Source: Verrucomicrobiota bacterium (GTDB lineage Bacteria; Verrucomicrobiota; Verrucomicrobiia; Opitutales; Seribacteraceae). Taken from it: DNA of 45,169 nucleotides. Made by a program: the position numbers. This document shows positions 12,001 through 21,000 of the stretch, piece by piece. The DNA lies in assembly GCA_027622665.1 (NCBI GenBank), contig JAQBYT010000035.1:1-45169 (forward strand). Reading direction: 5' to 3'. How positions within the stretch are numbered: the stretch's first letter is position 1; each line of letters opens with the position of its first letter.

Positions 12001-15000
12001 TATTGGTAATGAAGTACAAGAGCTTCCAGGCCTTCGCTACGTCCGCAAACCCGGAGAAGACACAGTATATATGGCGGAACTGGAAAACGTAAACAACGTC
12101 TCAACGAAATTCGTCGACTGGGTGGAAAAGGATTTTCTCGACTTAGACAAATGGGATGTCAAGCGGGTTACCTTAGACAACTACGACGTAAACATCGCCC
12201 AAGGAAAAATAAACCGCACGGGACCACCCCATGTCTTAGACTACGATAGCTCGGAATGGAAACTTTCAGGAAAACCGCTAACAGACGCTGAAGAGCTGGA
12301 CAAAGAAAAACTAGACAGCCTCAAAGACGCCCTCGACGACCTAAAGATCATCGACGTCGAAAGTAAGCCACAAATTCTCGTGGAAAACCTGAAGCGAGGG
12401 AACGAGTTCTTCAAGGGACTCAACGATCCCGGAAACAGGACAGTCGTAACTTCTCTTCAATCCAAAGGCTTTTACACGATTGCTGTTAAGGATGCTGCAG
12501 GACAACAGGTTCCGAAAATAGTATCTAACAAAGGAGAAATCCTCGTGGGTATGAAGGACGCCGTCGAATACGTCCTGCGTTTCGGGGAAACCTATCGTGG
12601 TCCCGAGGACGATGAAAACGCAACGGGAGACAGTCGCTACATCTACGCCTTCGCCCGCGTGAATGAATCATTGCTCGACCCACCCGAGTTAGAGGCGGTC
12701 CCCTCACCTCTTCCCGAAAAGCCCGCTCCCTTGGTGAAACCGGGAACCCCCTTGAACGAAACCAATGCAACCCTTCTTCCCCCTCCTTCGGAAGAAAAGA
12801 AAAACGGCGACAAGGGTGACAAAGGCAAAGACGGCGAAAAGGGTGCATCCTCCACCTCTACGCCCCCACCGGCTCCGGGTCCTCCGCCGAACATCAAACC
12901 ACCATCCACTCCTCCAACCGCACCTCCGCCACCGCCTCCCGCCCAGCAACCGTCTCCCCCGAGTTCGGAAACTAACGGCACCTCAGCAGCGAGTTCAATT
13001 GCAACCGATCCCGATGCCGAATACGCCAAGATGCGAGCCCAGCGAGAAGCTGACATAGCCCGCGTAAACGCCGAAAACGCCCGCAAGCAAAAGGAATACA
13101 CCGACAAGGTGACCAAAGCTCAAGCAAGAGTCAAAGAATTGAACGAGAAGCTTGCAGGGTGGTATTACGTCATTTCCAACGACGTGTACGAAAAGATCCG
13201 CCTCGAGCGCACCGATTTCGTGAAATCCAAAAAGAAAGAAGAGGGGGAAGAAGGAGATACCGCCACGCCAAAGGAAGTCGCCGCCTCCCATGTTCTTGTG
13301 GCCTATAAGGGAGCATCTAGGGCCGACCCATCCATTACCCGTTCAAAGGAAGAAGCCAAGACTCGCGCGGATTCTCTTCGCAAGCAAATCGTAGACGAAG
13401 CCAAAGACTTCGCCACCGTTGCGCGTGAAAACTCCGATGGCCCTAGCAAGACCAAGGGCGGCGACCTAGGCAAGTTCACCTTCGAGACCATGGCCAAAGC
13501 CTTCTCCGAAGCAGCATTCGCCCTTGATGTGGATGGAGTCTCCGAAGTGGTGGAAACGCCATTCGGATTCCATATCATCAAGAGAACCGAATAACGATAC
13601 GAACACCGAAAGCGGCTTGATCCAAAGAACCGCAAGCGAAGTTTAACCGAGGAAGCCCGGAAAGGAGACTTTTTAGCCTTTCCGATTTAACTCAAAGGCA
13701 TATTCTGCCGTCATATGGCTTTGCCTTTCCCGTCCAAAGAGATGAACCCGATTCTCGCTCGAATTCGGTCCGACGAGTCCACCCGTCTCCGGCTGAAATA
13801 CGACATATACTATCATACTTTTGACGGGCAGACGGGCACTCGCGTCCAACGCGAAGGTCGAGAGTTCGTCATGCTTTCCAGTAACGACTACCTCGGACTC
13901 AACCGACATCCAAAAGTCCTGGAAGCGGGACGTAAGGCCTTGGAAGAATGGGGTTCTAGCACCACCGGAGCACGGTTAGCGAACGGCGGTCGCTCCTTTC
14001 ACGTCGAACTGGAAGAAGAACTCGCGGAATTTCTGGGAAAAGAAGCCTGTCACATATACACTGCAGGATATCTGGCATGCTCTTCGGCGGTGGAAGGCTT
14101 CGCTGAACGGAACGATCTCATCTTCGCCGACAAAAACCTACATTCGTCGCTTTGGTCCGGGATTCACCTTTCGGGGGCTAGATGCGAACGGTTTTCTCAT
14201 AACAACCCCGAGCATTTCGCTCAAATTATCGCCGATGAACCGGAGGCAGTCGCCAAGATATTAGTTCTCGAAGGAGTCTACTCCATGGAAGGGCACGTTG
14301 CCAAGTTGCCCAGTTTCGTGGAACTCGCGAAAAATTACAACGCATTCGTCGTTTTGGACGAAGCCCATAGTTTCGGCATATTGGGAAATAAAGGCAGGGG
14401 AACAGCCTCTCACTTTGGAATCTCGGATAAAATCGACGTCCTCTGCGGTAGTTTTTCAAAAGCTCTCGCCAGTACTGGCGGCTTCGTAGCCTCCACTCGC
14501 GAAAACATCGACTACCTTCGTAGTCACTCCAAGCAAACCATATTTTCCGCATCCCTCTCCCCCTGCGCCACAGCTTGTGCCCGGGCCGCACTAAAGATCA
14601 TCCAAGAAGAACCCGAACATCAAGAACGACTGGAAAAAAACCTAAACCGCTACCGCTCCATCCTTAAGGAGCTGGAACTCGATACTTGGGAAAGCGAAAC
14701 TCCTGCCATCCCCATTGTTCTGGGAGATAAGGAAAAAGTATATTTTTTCTGGAAAGCCCTACTGGAGAAAGGCGTATTCACGGTCATTTCCATCGCCCCG
14801 GGAGTCCCCCCGAACAAGGATCTTGTACGCACCGCCATTTCGGCCGCCCATACCGATGAAGATCTAGACCAAATCGCCGATGCCCTCGCCTACGCAAAGT
14901 CTAAAATCTAAGAATCTCACTGTTTCAACCTCTTGAGTCGAAGGGCAAGCAAGAGAGCCTCCAACAATTTTCCCGCATGGCATGACCATGGCCGCGTAAA

Positions 15001-18000: not shown

Positions 18001-21000
18001 CGGGCAACGCTTGAGCAACTCCTGGAGAACCTCGGTCTCGGGAGATGTATGACTAGCTTGGCTCATCTTCGAAAACTGAAAAACCTTGATCCAAAGGCAA
18101 AAACGGGTTTTTCACAAGTTAATTTTCATCGCGATTTGCAGCATAAGTAAGTATAAGCGGAACACAGAACACCACAATTTCTTATGGGAAACAACTCACC
18201 GGAACACAAACCAGTCATTCTCACCTGCGCCCAACCCACGGGACGCTTGACCCTAGGTAATTACTTGGGCGCGGTAAGAAATTGGTCCACCATGCTGGAC
18301 GACTTCGAGTGCTATTTCGGCATTGTCGACATGCACGCCATCACCGTCCCCCACAAGCCTGCCGACCTTCGGCGCAATGTGCTCGAGTGCGCCGCTCAAT
18401 ACGTCGCCTGCGGTCTCGATCCCGAAAAATGTCACCAATTCGCCCAGTCTCACGTCACGGGGCACACCGAGCTCGCCTGGGTTCTCACCTGTCTCACGCC
18501 CATCGGCGAGCTCCAACGCATGACGCAGTTCAAGGAAAAGGTCGCCAAGCTCGGTTTCAAGGTCGAAGAGGACAAGGAGGCAGACCCCTCGGGCGAGGTA
18601 AAGTTCACCCACACCGGCTCCCGGGCACAGGCCAGCATCAACACCGGCCTCCTCTGCTACCCCGTGCTCATGGCAGCCGACATCCTCCTCTACAACGCCG
18701 ACCGCGTACCCGTCGGCGAGGACCAGAGACAACACCTCGAGCTCTGTCGCGATCTCGCCGAACGCTTCAACCGCACCTACTCGGAAACCTTCAAGATTCC
18801 CGCGCCCTACGTTCCCGAGACCGCGGCCCGCGTAATGTCCCTCGCCGACCCCACACGCAAAATGTCGAAATCGGACGAAAACGACCGAGCCACCCTCTAC
18901 ATTCTCGACGAACCCGACCGCATTCGCAAAAAAATCGGATCCGCCGTCACCGATTCCGGTTCCGAGGTCAAGGCAGGTCCCGACAAGCCGGGCGTCGCCA
19001 ACCTTCTCGCCATCCACTCCGCCCTTTCGGGGGAAACAGTGCCCGACCTAGAGGAAAAGTTCTCCGGGCAAGGCTACGGCGCATTCAAGAGCGAAGTGGC
19101 GGAAGTCGTGGTGGAGGCCCTTACCCCAGTCCGCGAAAAGTACCACGAATTGATTATCGACAAGGAGTACCTCCAAAACGTCCTCCGCGACGGCGCCGAA
19201 GCCGCACAGCGTAGGGCAAACAAGATAATCGGCAAGGTATACCGAAAAATTGGCTTTCCCGAACGTCCCCGCGTAAGCTAGAATCGAACAACCGCAACGC
19301 GACCACAAACCCTGCAAAGCCTAAAAGGAGAAAACCGAATGGACATGGACCACGAACAATCATCACCTTCGAATCTCATAAAGTGGCCCTTCTTCGCCTC
19401 CGCCGTGTTCATTCTCGGCTTCGTCTTGTACTTCGCTCTCAACCGCTCGCCCGACGAACCCCTCGACCAGTGGCAGCTCGCCACCTGCGTGCTCTCCTCC
19501 GCCCTCGCCTCCATCCTCGTTTTCCTTCCCTACCTCCTACAGAAGTTCCTCGAGCTCGCCCTCAACCCATCCGCCGACCGCGAGGAGCAATTGATCCAGA
19601 AGATATATTTCGAGCTCAAGGAAATGCGCGACGATCTGGGCACTCTCGGCATACAGGTCGAGAAAGTGCCTACGCTCGTAGACAAAATCGTATCCGAAGC
19701 CGCGGGCAACGATGATGCCGCCTTCTCTGAGGCCGTAAAACTGGGCGGCGAACTGGAAGCCCTCCGCAAGGAAATCGGCGAACGCTTCGACGCCCTCCGA
19801 AAACGCCTCGAAGACGCCGCCGCCCCGCCGCCCGACATCGCCCTTTCCACCATTCCCGTTGCCATCGACGACCTCCGCGAACGAATCGAGGAAACACTTA
19901 CCGCCGTTCAGGCCATCAAGCCCGCAAAACGCAAAACTTCACGCTCCAAAGAACCCGAATCCGAGGAATCCACTCCAATTGCCGAACCCGAGGCACAAGA
20001 GGAAAACGAAAGCCAAGCCGAGCTCGACGAACCGGAGCAAGAACCCGAAGAAGAAACCGTAAACGAGGAACCGGAGCCGGAATCCGACCCAAGTGATGAG
20101 GATGAACCCGAACCGGACGCCCTCGAACCCCAAGAGGAGTCGGAATCCGAGATCGAGGATGCAATCCCCGAGGAAGAGCCCGAAAACGAAGAACTTCCCG
20201 AGGATGAACCGGAGGAACCGGAACAAGCCGAGCTAGATCTCCCCGACCCCGCGGAAACCCTTCGAAAAGTCGACGCCATCCTCGAGGAAACCAACCCCGA
20301 TCGGGCCCAAAAGCCAAAGAAGGCCAAAGAGCCTGTCGCCGAAAAGTCCGACAACGGCGGTGCCACCGCAGTCGTGGCCAAGGTGAAAATCGGCATCGGC
20401 AACAAGCCCTTCCTCCGCGGAGAAGGCCCAGGCCTAAGCTGGGAAGAGGGCGTACCCATGAATTTCGTCGAAATCGGCAAGTGGGCATGGTCCCCCTCCG
20501 ACAAAGACGCCCCGCTCGTCGTGCAAGTGTACCGAAACGACGAGGACCCCGACCCCACGGGCAAGCACGAGGTCGAGCCCGGACAAAAACTGGAACTATC
20601 CCCCGAATTCCCCGAATAAGCTAAACCTCACCTCCCTCGGATAACCCCGTTGTTCCGGACACGAACCCCACTTCTGTTTCCGATGAAAACGAAAGTGTGA
20701 TTCCTTCTCCCGTCCATCCCCCCGGTAGTAAGGACCTTGTCAGTGATCGTGGATACGGGCGGCAAACTCTAGCTTAGCGGCAAGGTAATGAGTGACGGGG
20801 GTTCTACCGTAACGGAGGTCGGATTTTTTCTTTCACGCATCCTTGGAATCAATCCGGCTGATCCGAACTTGGTTCGGCTAGGAGCCAACCGGTCCGACGC
20901 CAACTTCATTCTGGTTGTCAAACCTCCCGAAAGCCTTGGGGTACAAATCTATGCCCGCAACTCAGCTGACGAAACCTACGGAGCCGTAAAAAGGGTAAGC

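Follow-up and report, generated by a model that had tools for sequence, protein, structure and literature searches.

A serine palmitoyltransferase-like synthase in a class-restricted gene cluster of Opitutales: a possible pathway to a glycosylated sphingoid-type envelope lipid

Results

The genes of the locus

The window, that is, the whole analyzed stretch of 45,169 nucleotides (contig JAQBYT010000035.1, positions 1-45,169) from a Verrucomicrobiota bacterium of the order Opitutales (assembly GCA_027622665.1; G000), contains the four genes that an earlier note had located here: an alpha-oxoamine synthase (AOS), two glycosyltransferases, and an acyl carrier protein (ACP) fused to a dehydratase. 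All four were confirmed (Table 1). The GT2 gene overlaps the stop of the GT4 gene by 13 bases, and 5 bases separate the stops of the GT2 and AOS genes. The longest open reading frame for GT4 spans 15792-17174 (-); its relatives align only from residue ~56-65, so the true start, placed from the alignments and the start codons, is probably the GTG at 17051 or 16997.

Table 1. Features of the window, with coordinates, strand, and supporting matches.
Feature	Coordinates	Strand	Match
ABC ATPase, opening the paralogous ABC-2 operon that precedes the AOS gene	7700-8431	+	tblastn
ABC-2 permease fused to a GldG-like auxiliary protein, 1001 aa	8486-11491	+	ABC2_membrane_5, ABC_transp_aux, DUF7088 (Pfam)
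DUF4340 protein with C-terminal PPIC rotamase, 685 aa	11537-13594	+	Pfam
SPT-like AOS, 398 aa	13715-14911	+	Pfam Aminotran_1_2, 173 bits
GT2 glycosyltransferase, 295 aa	14917-15804	-	Glycos_transf_2, 79 bits; Glyco_transf_21, 26.7 bits
GT4-family glycosyltransferase (GT1 in the earlier note)	15792-~17051	-	Pfam Glycos_transf_1, 103 bits
ACP fused to FabZ-like 3-hydroxyacyl dehydratase, 334 aa	17062-18066	-	PP-binding, 37 bits; FabA, 68 bits

An SPT-like alpha-oxoamine synthase

The AOS is the third of its kind in the genome; Kbl, adjoining Tdh, and BioF, adjoining BioD, are encoded elsewhere. It passes no NCBIfam equivalog cut-off: its best match is the SPT-CFB model (NF047600; 368 bits, cut-off 640), followed by BioF (337 bits, cut-off 426), and the other SPT equivalogs give 330 bits (cut-off 500) and 260 bits (cut-off 670). 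The true Kbl of the same genome, which scores 661 bits against a cut-off of 460, reaches 350 bits on the SPT-CFB model. The best PDB match of the AOS is the serine palmitoyltransferase (SPT) of Sphingobacterium (290 bits), with an alignment without gaps over 360 residues; identity to any characterized SPT is only ~38%.

The alignment shows that the PLP-binding Lys249 as well as His143, Asp215, and His218 are retained. The proposal that the enzyme is SPT-like is upheld by its position inside a 54-row clade (SH-aLRT 98) in a quick tree, whose labels were drawn from NCBIfam scores without named reference sequences, and by the SPT-type residues G85, N90, E192, and A279. This clade includes one sequence that passes the SPT-beta equivalog and all of the strong SPT-CFB-like sequences; BioF and Kbl fall outside. 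The substrate-loop motif, TTGARLANG, is nearly identical to that of beta-type SPTs (TTGSRLANG). The clade also has its own changes near the cofactor (Cys122, Ser246, and Ala117). Cys122 occurs throughout the clade, and nearly all other alignment rows have Asn (the exception, P0280, has Gly); in the Sphingobacterium structure this Asn (Asn117) lies beside the PLP ring, and Thr241 of the same enzyme is Ser in the AOS. The substrate cannot be read from the sequence; we propose the AOS as a candidate long-chain-base synthase.

The carrier–dehydratase and its ketosynthase

The fusion of carrier and dehydratase is genuine, with both domains present and their active-site residues kept: Ser78 of the carrier and His174/Glu188 of the dehydratase are invariant in all covering rows of a 20-row alignment (18 each). 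On the FabZ equivalog it scores 84 bits (cut-off 113), and the ESM Atlas lists clusters of the fusion with Verrucomicrobiota as the commonest phylum. The carrier–dehydratase occurs in 72 of the 121 Opitutales genomes in our panel, as two separate genes in 14 of them. Its partner, a FabF-like ketosynthase (KS), has an intact Cys-His-His triad. Because housekeeping FabH, FabF, and LpxC genes exist separately, the carrier/dehydratase/KS trio is an extra module. The fusion had been described as dedicated to the pathway of the AOS; this description does not hold, since the trio is found without the AOS in 11 genomes.

A larger cluster, scattered in this genome

The four genes of the window are the remnant of a larger Opitutales cluster. 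Where intact (L012, L013, and L015), it comprises a second GT4 gene (GT4b), a run of genes for the ACP–dehydratase, the FabF-like KS, a KdsR-like SDR, a UgtP-like GT28, and GT4, and a convergent AOS gene; given this orientation, the AOS is not co-transcribed with the operon. L027 and L041 have the same operon and encode the AOS at another genomic site. In the genome studied here, the KS (contig C52), the SDR (contig C30) together with GT4b, and GT28 all lie outside the window contig. The earlier gene list was right for the window; the conserved unit also includes the KS, SDR, GT28, and second GT4. The distant KdsR-like SDR that had been pointed out is indeed present, and is the ortholog of the SDR located inside the cluster in other genomes; KdsR (NF049977) is its second-best model, matched over the full length with 121 bits (cut-off 400).

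The two glycosyltransferases of the window differ in standing. GT4 is the constant partner of the AOS: the two genes lie at most 8 kb apart in 28 of the 61 genomes having both, with varying genes between them (in several loci GT9 heptosyltransferase-like genes), and they are again near each other in a genome of a sister order (L050; 51% and 36% identity). GT2, present at the locus as the earlier note had said, is a lineage-specific accessory and not a conserved member: an ortholog occurs in only two of 28 loci from other genomes (L029 and L030), its Glyco_transf_21 match is marginal (cut-off 21.7 bits), and its best NCBIfam match, of MftF type, reaches 93 bits (cut-off 280).

The upstream ABC-2 operon has its main copy on contig C53. 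By tblastn, the ATPase of the window copy shares 43% identity with the one encoded after the carrier gene in family f3 genomes; in L047 and L048, this ABC-2 gene set comes after the gene for the carrier. The DUF4340/PPIC protein adjoins the AOS in all five genomes of the window's own family; this protein family occurs in 103 of the 121 genomes, so it is not diagnostic alone. The ABC-2 system may be a lipid exporter, a link that we regard as weak.

Co-occurrence across Opitutales

Orthologs of both AOS and GT4 were found in 61 of the 121 genomes, the AOS alone in one, GT4 alone in two, and neither in 57 (62 genomes with the AOS and 63 with GT4 in all); these counts overstate the case because the genomes are related and hence not independent. 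The grouping is more than chance. Inside families f12 and f17, AOS and GT4 vary together. Among the 62 genomes with the AOS, 61 have the carrier (that of the 62nd, L042, was found by tblastn) and 60 the KS. Of the 61 genomes with AOS and carrier, 27 have at most 12 kb between the two genes, and four have them far apart on one contig; the other 30 carry them on separate contigs, so that no distance can be judged. The order-wide linkage of the AOS to the carrier–dehydratase and to glycosyltransferases, claimed earlier, is borne out by both synteny and co-occurrence.

The SDR is found in 45 genomes, 43 of which have the AOS; the other two (G031 and the 100% complete G049) have the trio and GT4 with no AOS match. 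It occurs only in genomes with GT4, and in none of the nine trio genomes without GT4, a distribution more easily reconciled with reduction of a long-chain base than with a reductase role in elongation; 19 of the 62 AOS genomes have no SDR at E<=1e-30. The gene group is kept by about half of the sampled Opitutales, and the cluster is restricted to the class Opitutae.

Discussion

The genes of the window are best explained as one part of a lipid pathway confined to a single class. From the observed gene families, intact catalytic residues, conserved synteny, and co-occurrence, we infer the following mechanism. The FabF-like KS would extend an acyl primer by condensation with malonate attached to the fusion's ACP domain; after ketoreduction, the fused FabZ-like domain would dehydrate the chain in cis, and each round would be finished by housekeeping FabG and FabI. 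This would leave the acyl chain bound to its own private carrier, as with rhizobial AcpXL, making an acyl-ACP synthetase unnecessary. The AOS would then condense the acyl-ACP with serine or another small amino acid, yielding a 3-keto long-chain base; the 3-keto group would be reduced by the KdsR-like SDR, and sugars would be added by the accompanying GT4 and further by the UgtP-like GT28, the second GT4, and the lineage-specific GT9 or GT2. These steps would end in a glycosylated sphingoid-type envelope lipid, possibly exported by the adjacent ABC-2 system.

Glycosyltransferase genes are reportedly associated with the sphingolipid locus of Caulobacter; the set that goes with the Opitutales AOS is GT4, GT28, and GT4, with GT9 or GT2 in addition. 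Individual steps have precedents in the published accounts: an SPT that prefers a dedicated acyl-ACP (PMC9386255), sphinganines produced by a PKS and an AOS (PMC12134224), and acyl-ACP as the proposed substrate of CFAT (PMC13692747). The Spt-AcpR-AasR system of Caulobacter and other 'Rhodobacteria' (PMC9386255) resembles the Opitutales cluster in the genetic link between an SPT-type AOS and a specialized, non-housekeeping ACP. There, a dedicated acyl-ACP synthetase loads the carrier, whereas the Opitutales carrier forms a fusion with a dehydratase and has an elongating KS as its partner; the annotated cluster ORFs include no ligase of this kind, and neither bCerS nor CerR was found with the cluster. 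SgaA-SgaB-SgaC of Pseudomonas fluorescens MYb115, in which SgaA is an iterative type I PKS and SgaB the AOS (PMC12134224), likewise has a private KS/DH/ACP machine that passes what it makes on to an SPT-like AOS, with a KDS-reductase-type enzyme next; the Opitutales cluster differs in its discrete type-II proteins (only ACP and DH are fused), its at least three glycosyltransferases, and its restriction to Opitutae. Bacteroidota Spt (NF047600; Sphingobacterium 3A2B/8GUH, PMC10196870) provides the best profile and structure-sequence matches, although the Opitutales AOS and SDR score far under the curated cut-offs for Spt and KdsR.

The main rival, which we consider unlikely, is an LPS-linked module: the trio would make a special (e.g., very long or hydroxylated) lipid A acyl chain, GT4, GT9, and GT28 would build the LPS core, and the AOS would either be unrelated or act secondarily on the same glycolipid of the envelope. 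The gene content parallels the rhizobial AcpXL-FabZXL-FabF1/2XL cluster as described (PMC5613085), where a dedicated ACP, FabZ and FabF paralogs, and a dehydrogenase are also together and elongation is also apart from housekeeping FAS; the Opitutales cluster, however, has one KS rather than two, its ACP and DH are fused, a possible consumer of the acyl chain (the AOS) lies within it, and its annotated ORFs include no LpxXL-type acyltransferase. The genome does make LPS (homologs of LpxC, WaaA, and LpxL are present), yet its sole Lip_A_acyltrans match is unlinked, on contig C36. The GT4 and GT9 families are, moreover, typical of LPS-core enzymes, with GT9 genes between GT4 and AOS as noted above, and in family f3 (L036 and L037) the dehydratase and KS share an operon with a Kdo transferase and a metallophosphoesterase. 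The trio is also wider than the AOS (72-74 genomes against 62), but GT4, SDR, and AOS have one phyletic pattern, unlike that of the trio, and we know of no role for an AOS in lipid A or core synthesis.

A second rival, very improbable, is that the AOS takes a different amino acid or acyl donor and makes something other than a sphingoid base; the glycosyltransferases would then act either on this compound or on another substrate. Candidates would be a cysteate-derived, capnine-like sulfonolipid, an amino-lipid derived from glycine or alanine, or an alpha-hydroxyketone signal of the CqsA type. The low identity to characterized SPTs, the scores below all cut-offs, and the clade-specific residues close to the cofactor leave room for this, and SPTs themselves are reported to accept Ala, Gly, and Thr (PMC10196870); the substrate loop, on the other hand, agrees with beta-type SPTs. 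CFAT/SulA/CapB of sulfonolipid synthesis (PMC13692747) is an SPT-related AOS and proposed acyl-ACP user too, but CFAT scores 201 bits in the PDB comparison, and the CFAT trans-subunit lysine that contacts the sulfonate (Lys280) is Ala279 here, which makes the capnine-like alternative raised earlier unlikely. CqsA scores lowest (127 bits in PDB, 223 bits in NCBIfam). Least probable of all is that there is no common pathway, that is, that the AOS is a spare BioF/Kbl-type enzyme lying by chance beside envelope glycosyltransferase genes and that the AOS–GT link reflects shared ancestry of the genomes. The convergent orientation, the variable intervening genes, and the separation of the pair in many genomes favor this reading, and kinship does inflate the two-by-two counts. 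Against it stand a true Kbl and BioF that sit elsewhere with their usual partners, joint gain or loss of AOS and GT4 in several families, and the proximity of the two in the sister order.

A ceramide synthase homolog, left unsought in the earlier note, was looked for: no bCerS-type acyltransferase consistently accompanies the AOS in the genomes compared, so a ceramide is not shown as the product. The earlier reading is partly supported: it keeps its SPT-like AOS and the links of this enzyme to the carrier and to glycosyltransferases, and loses the conserved GT2 and the dedicated fusion. Its claim of novelty for sphingolipid-type lipids in Verrucomicrobiota also narrows, with Spt-like genes already in print for 22 Verrucomicrobiota MAGs (PMC11334938); we found no lipid data for any Opitutales in the literature. 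On balance, we lean toward a glycosylated sphingoid-type envelope lipid in these Opitutales, built on a private type-II elongation module and probably undescribed.

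Gene content of the window

An earlier note had proposed a four-gene lipid cluster in the window, and ORF listing with Pfam and NCBIfam scans finds all four genes: a serine-palmitoyltransferase (SPT)-like alpha-oxoamine synthase (AOS), a GT2 glycosyltransferase, a GT4-type glycosyltransferase and a fusion of an acyl carrier protein with a FabZ-like dehydratase (ACP-DH). The minus-strand genes form one tightly packed operon (ACP-DH, GT4, GT2), with a 13-base overlap between GT2 and GT4; the likely GTG start of GT4 lies 10 bases past the ACP-DH stop, and alignments with GT4 relatives begin only at residue ~56-65 of the longest frame. 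AOS runs towards this operon from the opposite strand, with its stop 5 bases from that of GT2.

Features of the window discussed in the text
Feature	Position	Strand	Remark	Source
ABC ATPase	7700-8431	+	same strand as AOS	
Fused ABC-2 permease and GldG-like auxiliary protein	8486-11491	+	same strand as AOS	
DUF4340 protein with C-terminal PPIC rotamase	11537-13594	+	same strand as AOS	
AOS	13715-14911	+	398 aa	ORF listing, Pfam/NCBIfam
GT2	14917-15804	-		ORF listing, Pfam/NCBIfam
GT4 (Pfam Glycos_transf_1)	15792-17174 (longest ORF)	-	likely start GTG 17051	
ACP-DH (ACP + FabZ-like dehydratase fusion)	17062-18066	-	334 aa	ORF listing, Pfam/NCBIfam
ORF without Pfam or NCBIfam match	19339-20619		426 aa	

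When fused proteins and four split halves are aligned (20 rows), the carrier serine (Ser78, in a DSL motif) and the dehydratase residues His174 and Glu188 are invariant in all covering rows (18 each). GT2 scores 26.7 bits on Glyco_transf_21 (cut-off 21.7) versus 79 bits on the generic GT2 family, and its orthologues occur in only two of the 28 loci compared (L029 and L030). The ORF at the end of the table has a 25%-identical counterpart beside a tryptophanyl-tRNA synthetase gene in loci L011 and L029 as well.

The alpha-oxoamine synthase

The genome that carries the window (G000) encodes three alpha-oxoamine synthases, so AOS is indeed, as the note had it, a third paralogue besides BioF and Kbl. 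The Kbl scores 661 bits on its equivalog model (cut-off 460) and adjoins threonine dehydrogenase (Tdh), and the BioF-like gene adjoins BioD; these true Kbl-Tdh and BioF-BioD pairs are located elsewhere in the genome, not at AOS. In NCBIfam, AOS falls below all equivalog cut-offs: it scores 368 bits on NF047600 (SPT-CFB; cut-off 640), 330 on NF047599 (SPT-beta; 500), 260 on the third SPT equivalog, NF047603 (670), 337 on BioF (426) and 297 on Kbl (460). The true Kbl of the same genome reaches 350 bits on SPT-CFB; therefore, the AOS score on that model says little by itself. P0241, the full-length cluster representative of the AOS clade, behaves likewise on the SPT equivalogs.

Among solved structures, the best match is the SPT of Sphingobacterium multivorum (290 bits, 360 residues aligned gap-free); the others are Thermus AONS/KBL (243), KBL (219), alpha-proteobacterial SPTs (216-218), the cysteate acyltransferase CFAT (201), ALAS (184), AONS (180) and CqsA (127). 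K249, H143, D215, H218, S190 and S248 of AOS align without gaps with K244, H138, D210, H213, S185 and S243 of the Sphingobacterium enzyme, the roles of which are taken from PMC10196870; AOS keeps the PLP-lysine of the fold and its His/Asp/His cofactor residues.

A homologue search covering 1.84 billion cluster representatives revealed a sharp identity gap below AOS, with P0241 at 50% and a few fragments followed by full-length single-domain representatives at no more than 41%. We built a quick IQ-TREE phylogeny from 71 stand-alone representatives, AOS, seven Opitutales orthologues and the Kbl and BioF of G000, with NCBIfam scores, and no named Spt or CFAT references, as labels. The Opitutales sequences group in a single long-stemmed clade (support 100), nested in a 54-row clade (SH-aLRT 98) that holds one SPT-beta equivalog pass and all rows with a strong SPT-CFB likeness; no BioF or Kbl equivalog pass falls within it. 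G85, N90, E192 and A279 of AOS agree with the SPT-like rows and not with BioF/Kbl; these columns, picked after the alignment had been viewed, are no more than indirect evidence for serine and a long-chain acyl thioester as putative substrates. The substrate loop of the AOS clade reads TTGARLANG, close to the TTGSRLANG of beta-type SPTs, and the changes specific to the clade in the alignment are Cys122, Ser246 and Ala117; position 122, Asn in nearly all rows outside the clade, corresponds to Sphingobacterium Asn117, beside the PLP ring. The note had named a capnine-type product as an alternative. The trans-subunit Lys280 of cysteate acyltransferases, which contacts the sulfonate according to PMC13692747, corresponds to Ala279 in 14/14 rows of the AOS clade; because of this replacement, such a product is unlikely.

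The closest relatives of AOS and of the carrier gene among those listed (at least 71% identity for AOS and at least 65% for the carrier fusion) come mostly from marine Opitutae metagenome bins, as judged by source names, and Verrucomicrobiota is the commonest phylum in each close ACP-FabA fusion cluster listed in the ESM Atlas.

The complete cluster in other Opitutales

Comparison by tblastn and Pfam of the 28 loci, all from other Opitutales genomes, places the window genes in a larger cluster. Its intact order (L012, L013 and L015) is a second GT4 (GT4b, divergent), ACP-DH, a FabF-like ketosynthase (KS, ~420 aa), an SDR, a UgtP/MGDG-synthase-like GT28, GT4 and AOS (convergent); L027 and L041 have the operon in the same order, with AOS elsewhere in the genome. 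The gap between GT4 and AOS is often filled by a GT9, a further GT4, an ABC-2 permease or a GT2. The KS bears the elongating-type Cys-His-His triad and, compared with FabF, has an insertion; measured against housekeeping FabF, this comprises ~11 residues around 'EDWT' (L031:8444-9703, on contig C52 of G000). For the SDR, the second-best NCBIfam model is KdsR (3-ketodihydrosphingosine reductase; 121 bits over the full length, cut-off 400), and such a KdsR-like SDR lies within the cluster in many genomes. In locus L014:7607-9199 (genome G057), a DDE transposase gene separates KS and GT4.

The set is scattered in G000: C52 carries the KS orthologue (57-59% identity to the KS in the L012 and L023 clusters), C30 the SDR and GT4b, which are divergently oriented and adjoin an ABC-2 permease, and C40 a GT28-like gene. 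On C52, the cluster-type KS is followed by a nitroreductase-family gene.

The ABC-2/DUF4340 set directly upstream of AOS, which adjoins AOS in 5/5 genomes of the window's family, has its main copy in a paralogous operon on C53. In the two annotated loci of family f3 (L047 and L048), a stand-alone carrier gene immediately precedes the equivalent operon, and in 5/5 f3 panel genomes the carrier gene and a DUF4340 match are 4-5 kb apart. A search with the DUF4340-rotamase protein matched 7/121 Opitutales genomes, two of them outside the window's family and by the C-terminal rotamase only, so that this single-protein search is too insensitive beyond that family; the DUF4340 family itself occurs in 103/121 genomes. 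The association thus comes down to two juxtapositions, and a role as an exporter linked to the cluster is only suggestive because DUF4340 is nearly universal in the order.

Phyletic distribution and linkage

All counts for the order derive from one draw of 121 Opitutales genomes. Orthologues were found in 62 genomes for AOS, 63 for GT4, 72 for the carrier/dehydratase, 74 for KS and 45 for the SDR; the carrier count omits G053, regarded as the housekeeping LpxC-FabZ type, and in 14 genomes carrier and dehydratase are split in two genes. AOS and GT4 occur together in 61 genomes, AOS only in one, GT4 only in two and neither in 57, and such co-occurrence tables overstate significance because related genomes are not independent. 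The AOS-only genome (G028) has GT4 in two pieces (L030). Of the 62 genomes with AOS, 61 contain the carrier (the 62nd was recovered by tblastn in L042), 60 the KS and 43 the SDR. The trio, that is, carrier, dehydratase and KS, occurs without AOS in 11 genomes, nine of which also lack GT4 and SDR; the SDR is present in both AOS-less GT4 genomes and in 0/9 of the trio-only genomes. The cluster therefore has two layers, an older trio and a set of AOS and GT4 (with SDR and GT28) seen only alongside it.

Carrier and KS are at most 4 kb apart in 46/70 genomes, and AOS and GT4 at most 8 kb apart in 28/61. The distance from AOS to the carrier is up to 12 kb in 27/61 genomes; in four the two are far apart on one contig, and in 30 they are on different contigs. 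AOS and GT4 co-vary within families f12 and f17, and because they do so repeatedly, a chance neighborhood is unlikely. In a phylum sample of 201 genomes, AOS orthologues were confined to G000, 19 others of the order and two from the same class; one of the latter two again has AOS near GT4 and GT28 orthologues.

The proposed pathway and its strongest rival

From family membership and gene context, we infer a pathway in which the KS would load and elongate a chain on the private carrier, with the fused dehydratase acting in cis and the housekeeping FabG and FabI finishing each round. AOS would then join serine, or a small amino acid like it, to the acyl carrier; the 3-keto group would be reduced by the SDR; and the product would be glycosylated by GT4, GT28, GT4b and lineage-specific glycosyltransferases. 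Precedents for individual steps appear in three papers: the preference of some SPTs for a dedicated acyl-AcpR (PMC9386255), SgaAB, which makes PKS-derived sphinganines (PMC12134224), and acyl-ACP as the proposed CFAT substrate (PMC13692747). We favor, by a little, a glycosylated sphingoid-type lipid built on a private type-II elongation module.

The strongest rival is a role in LPS. Family f3 has neither AOS nor GT4, and its dehydratase and KS share an operon with Kdo transferase and a metallophosphoesterase. Both GT9 and GT4 are families of the LPS-core type, and the trio resembles the rhizobial acpXL-fabZXL-fabF1XL-fabF2XL-lpxXL cluster as described in PMC5613085: both have a dedicated ACP with FabZ and FabF paralogues clustered apart from the housekeeping FAS. 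The rhizobial lpxXL, however, is without counterpart among the annotated Opitutales cluster ORFs, where no LpxXL-type acyltransferase was found; the single PF03279 hit of G000 is on C36. Moreover, the AOS/GT4/SDR layer has a phyletic pattern of its own, and we consider an LPS-linked module improbable. Loci L036:6525-10406 and L037:7663-10728, from genomes without AOS and GT4, each have the FabZ-like dehydratase, KS and the Kdo transferase WaaA in one operon, with the metallophosphoesterase next in L036.

Two other roles for the trio were rejected. It is not a replacement for FabH, which is present in 118/121 genomes including G000, and it is not the housekeeping FAS, because FabF and LpxC are separately present in G000. 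The LpxC match in G000 (L043, C16:42371-43177) lies within a 512-aa open frame, which suggests a fusion of LpxC with the housekeeping FabZ like that in NCBIfam PRK13188. Three genomes of one panel genus (G017, G076 and G118; 96-99% complete) have no FabH match at E<=1e-30, and all three carry the full lipid cluster. For a reduced verrucomicrobial endosymbiont, FabB, FabF, FabZ and ACP are listed in PMC8204192, the main text of which mentions no fusion.

Long-chain base or ceramide

We searched the 121 genomes for the ceramide synthase bCerS using PF13480 and E. coli YghO as stand-ins and found no bCerS-type acyltransferase accompanying AOS: 31/62 AOS genomes have a PF13480 member of any kind, in no case linked to the cluster, and YghO-like matches occur in 5/121 genomes, with none in G000. 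A long-chain base is therefore plausible as the AOS product, and the evidence stops short of ceramide. The PF13480 (Acetyltransf_6) protein of G000 (413 aa; L046:7791-9032 on C14), encoded between FolE2 (GTP cyclohydrolase) and pdxH (pyridoxamine-phosphate oxidase), has no similarity to E. coli YghO, and its orthologues occur in only 11/121 Opitutales genomes.

PF13444 was discarded as a further stand-in, with no match in the Caulobacter control genome and an OlsF-like gene on C10 as the only match. That gene (L034:6137-8026) encodes a 629-aa LPLAT + Acetyltransf_5 bifunctional acyltransferase (410 bits on the OlsF model, cut-off 620), a candidate maker of an ornithine- or glycine-type aminolipid and a possible N-acyltransferase for other amines.

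Novelty and significance

Spt-like genes in 22 Verrucomicrobiota MAGs are already published (PMC11334938). In the main texts of the library searched, we found no literature on this cluster, on a carrier-dehydratase fusion in this role or on Opitutales sphingolipids, and no relevant lipid chemistry or polar-lipid data for Opitutales. We class the cluster as a probable form of bacterial sphingolipid-type synthesis with a private carrier as its acyl supply. It is conceivable, and in our judgment rather unlikely, that Opitutae have an undescribed route to a glycosphingolipid-like outer-membrane lipid in which the tail of the base is elongated on the carrier-dehydratase fusion and handed straight to the SPT-like enzyme; trans-2-enoyl delivery may give a 4-unsaturated base without a desaturase, glycosylation would be by GT4/GT28, and N-acylation would be absent or due to a non-bCerS enzyme.

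Two ways of feeding an SPT-type enzyme are already known, one through AcpR and its acyl-ACP synthetase and the other through an iterative PKS; if the sphingoid reading is true, a type-II elongation module whose carrier and dehydratase are fused would be a third. That reading predicts a testable lipid class, glycosylated long-chain bases, that could be a biomarker for the group, and related genomes with the complete set, with just the trio or without either provide a natural experimental contrast.
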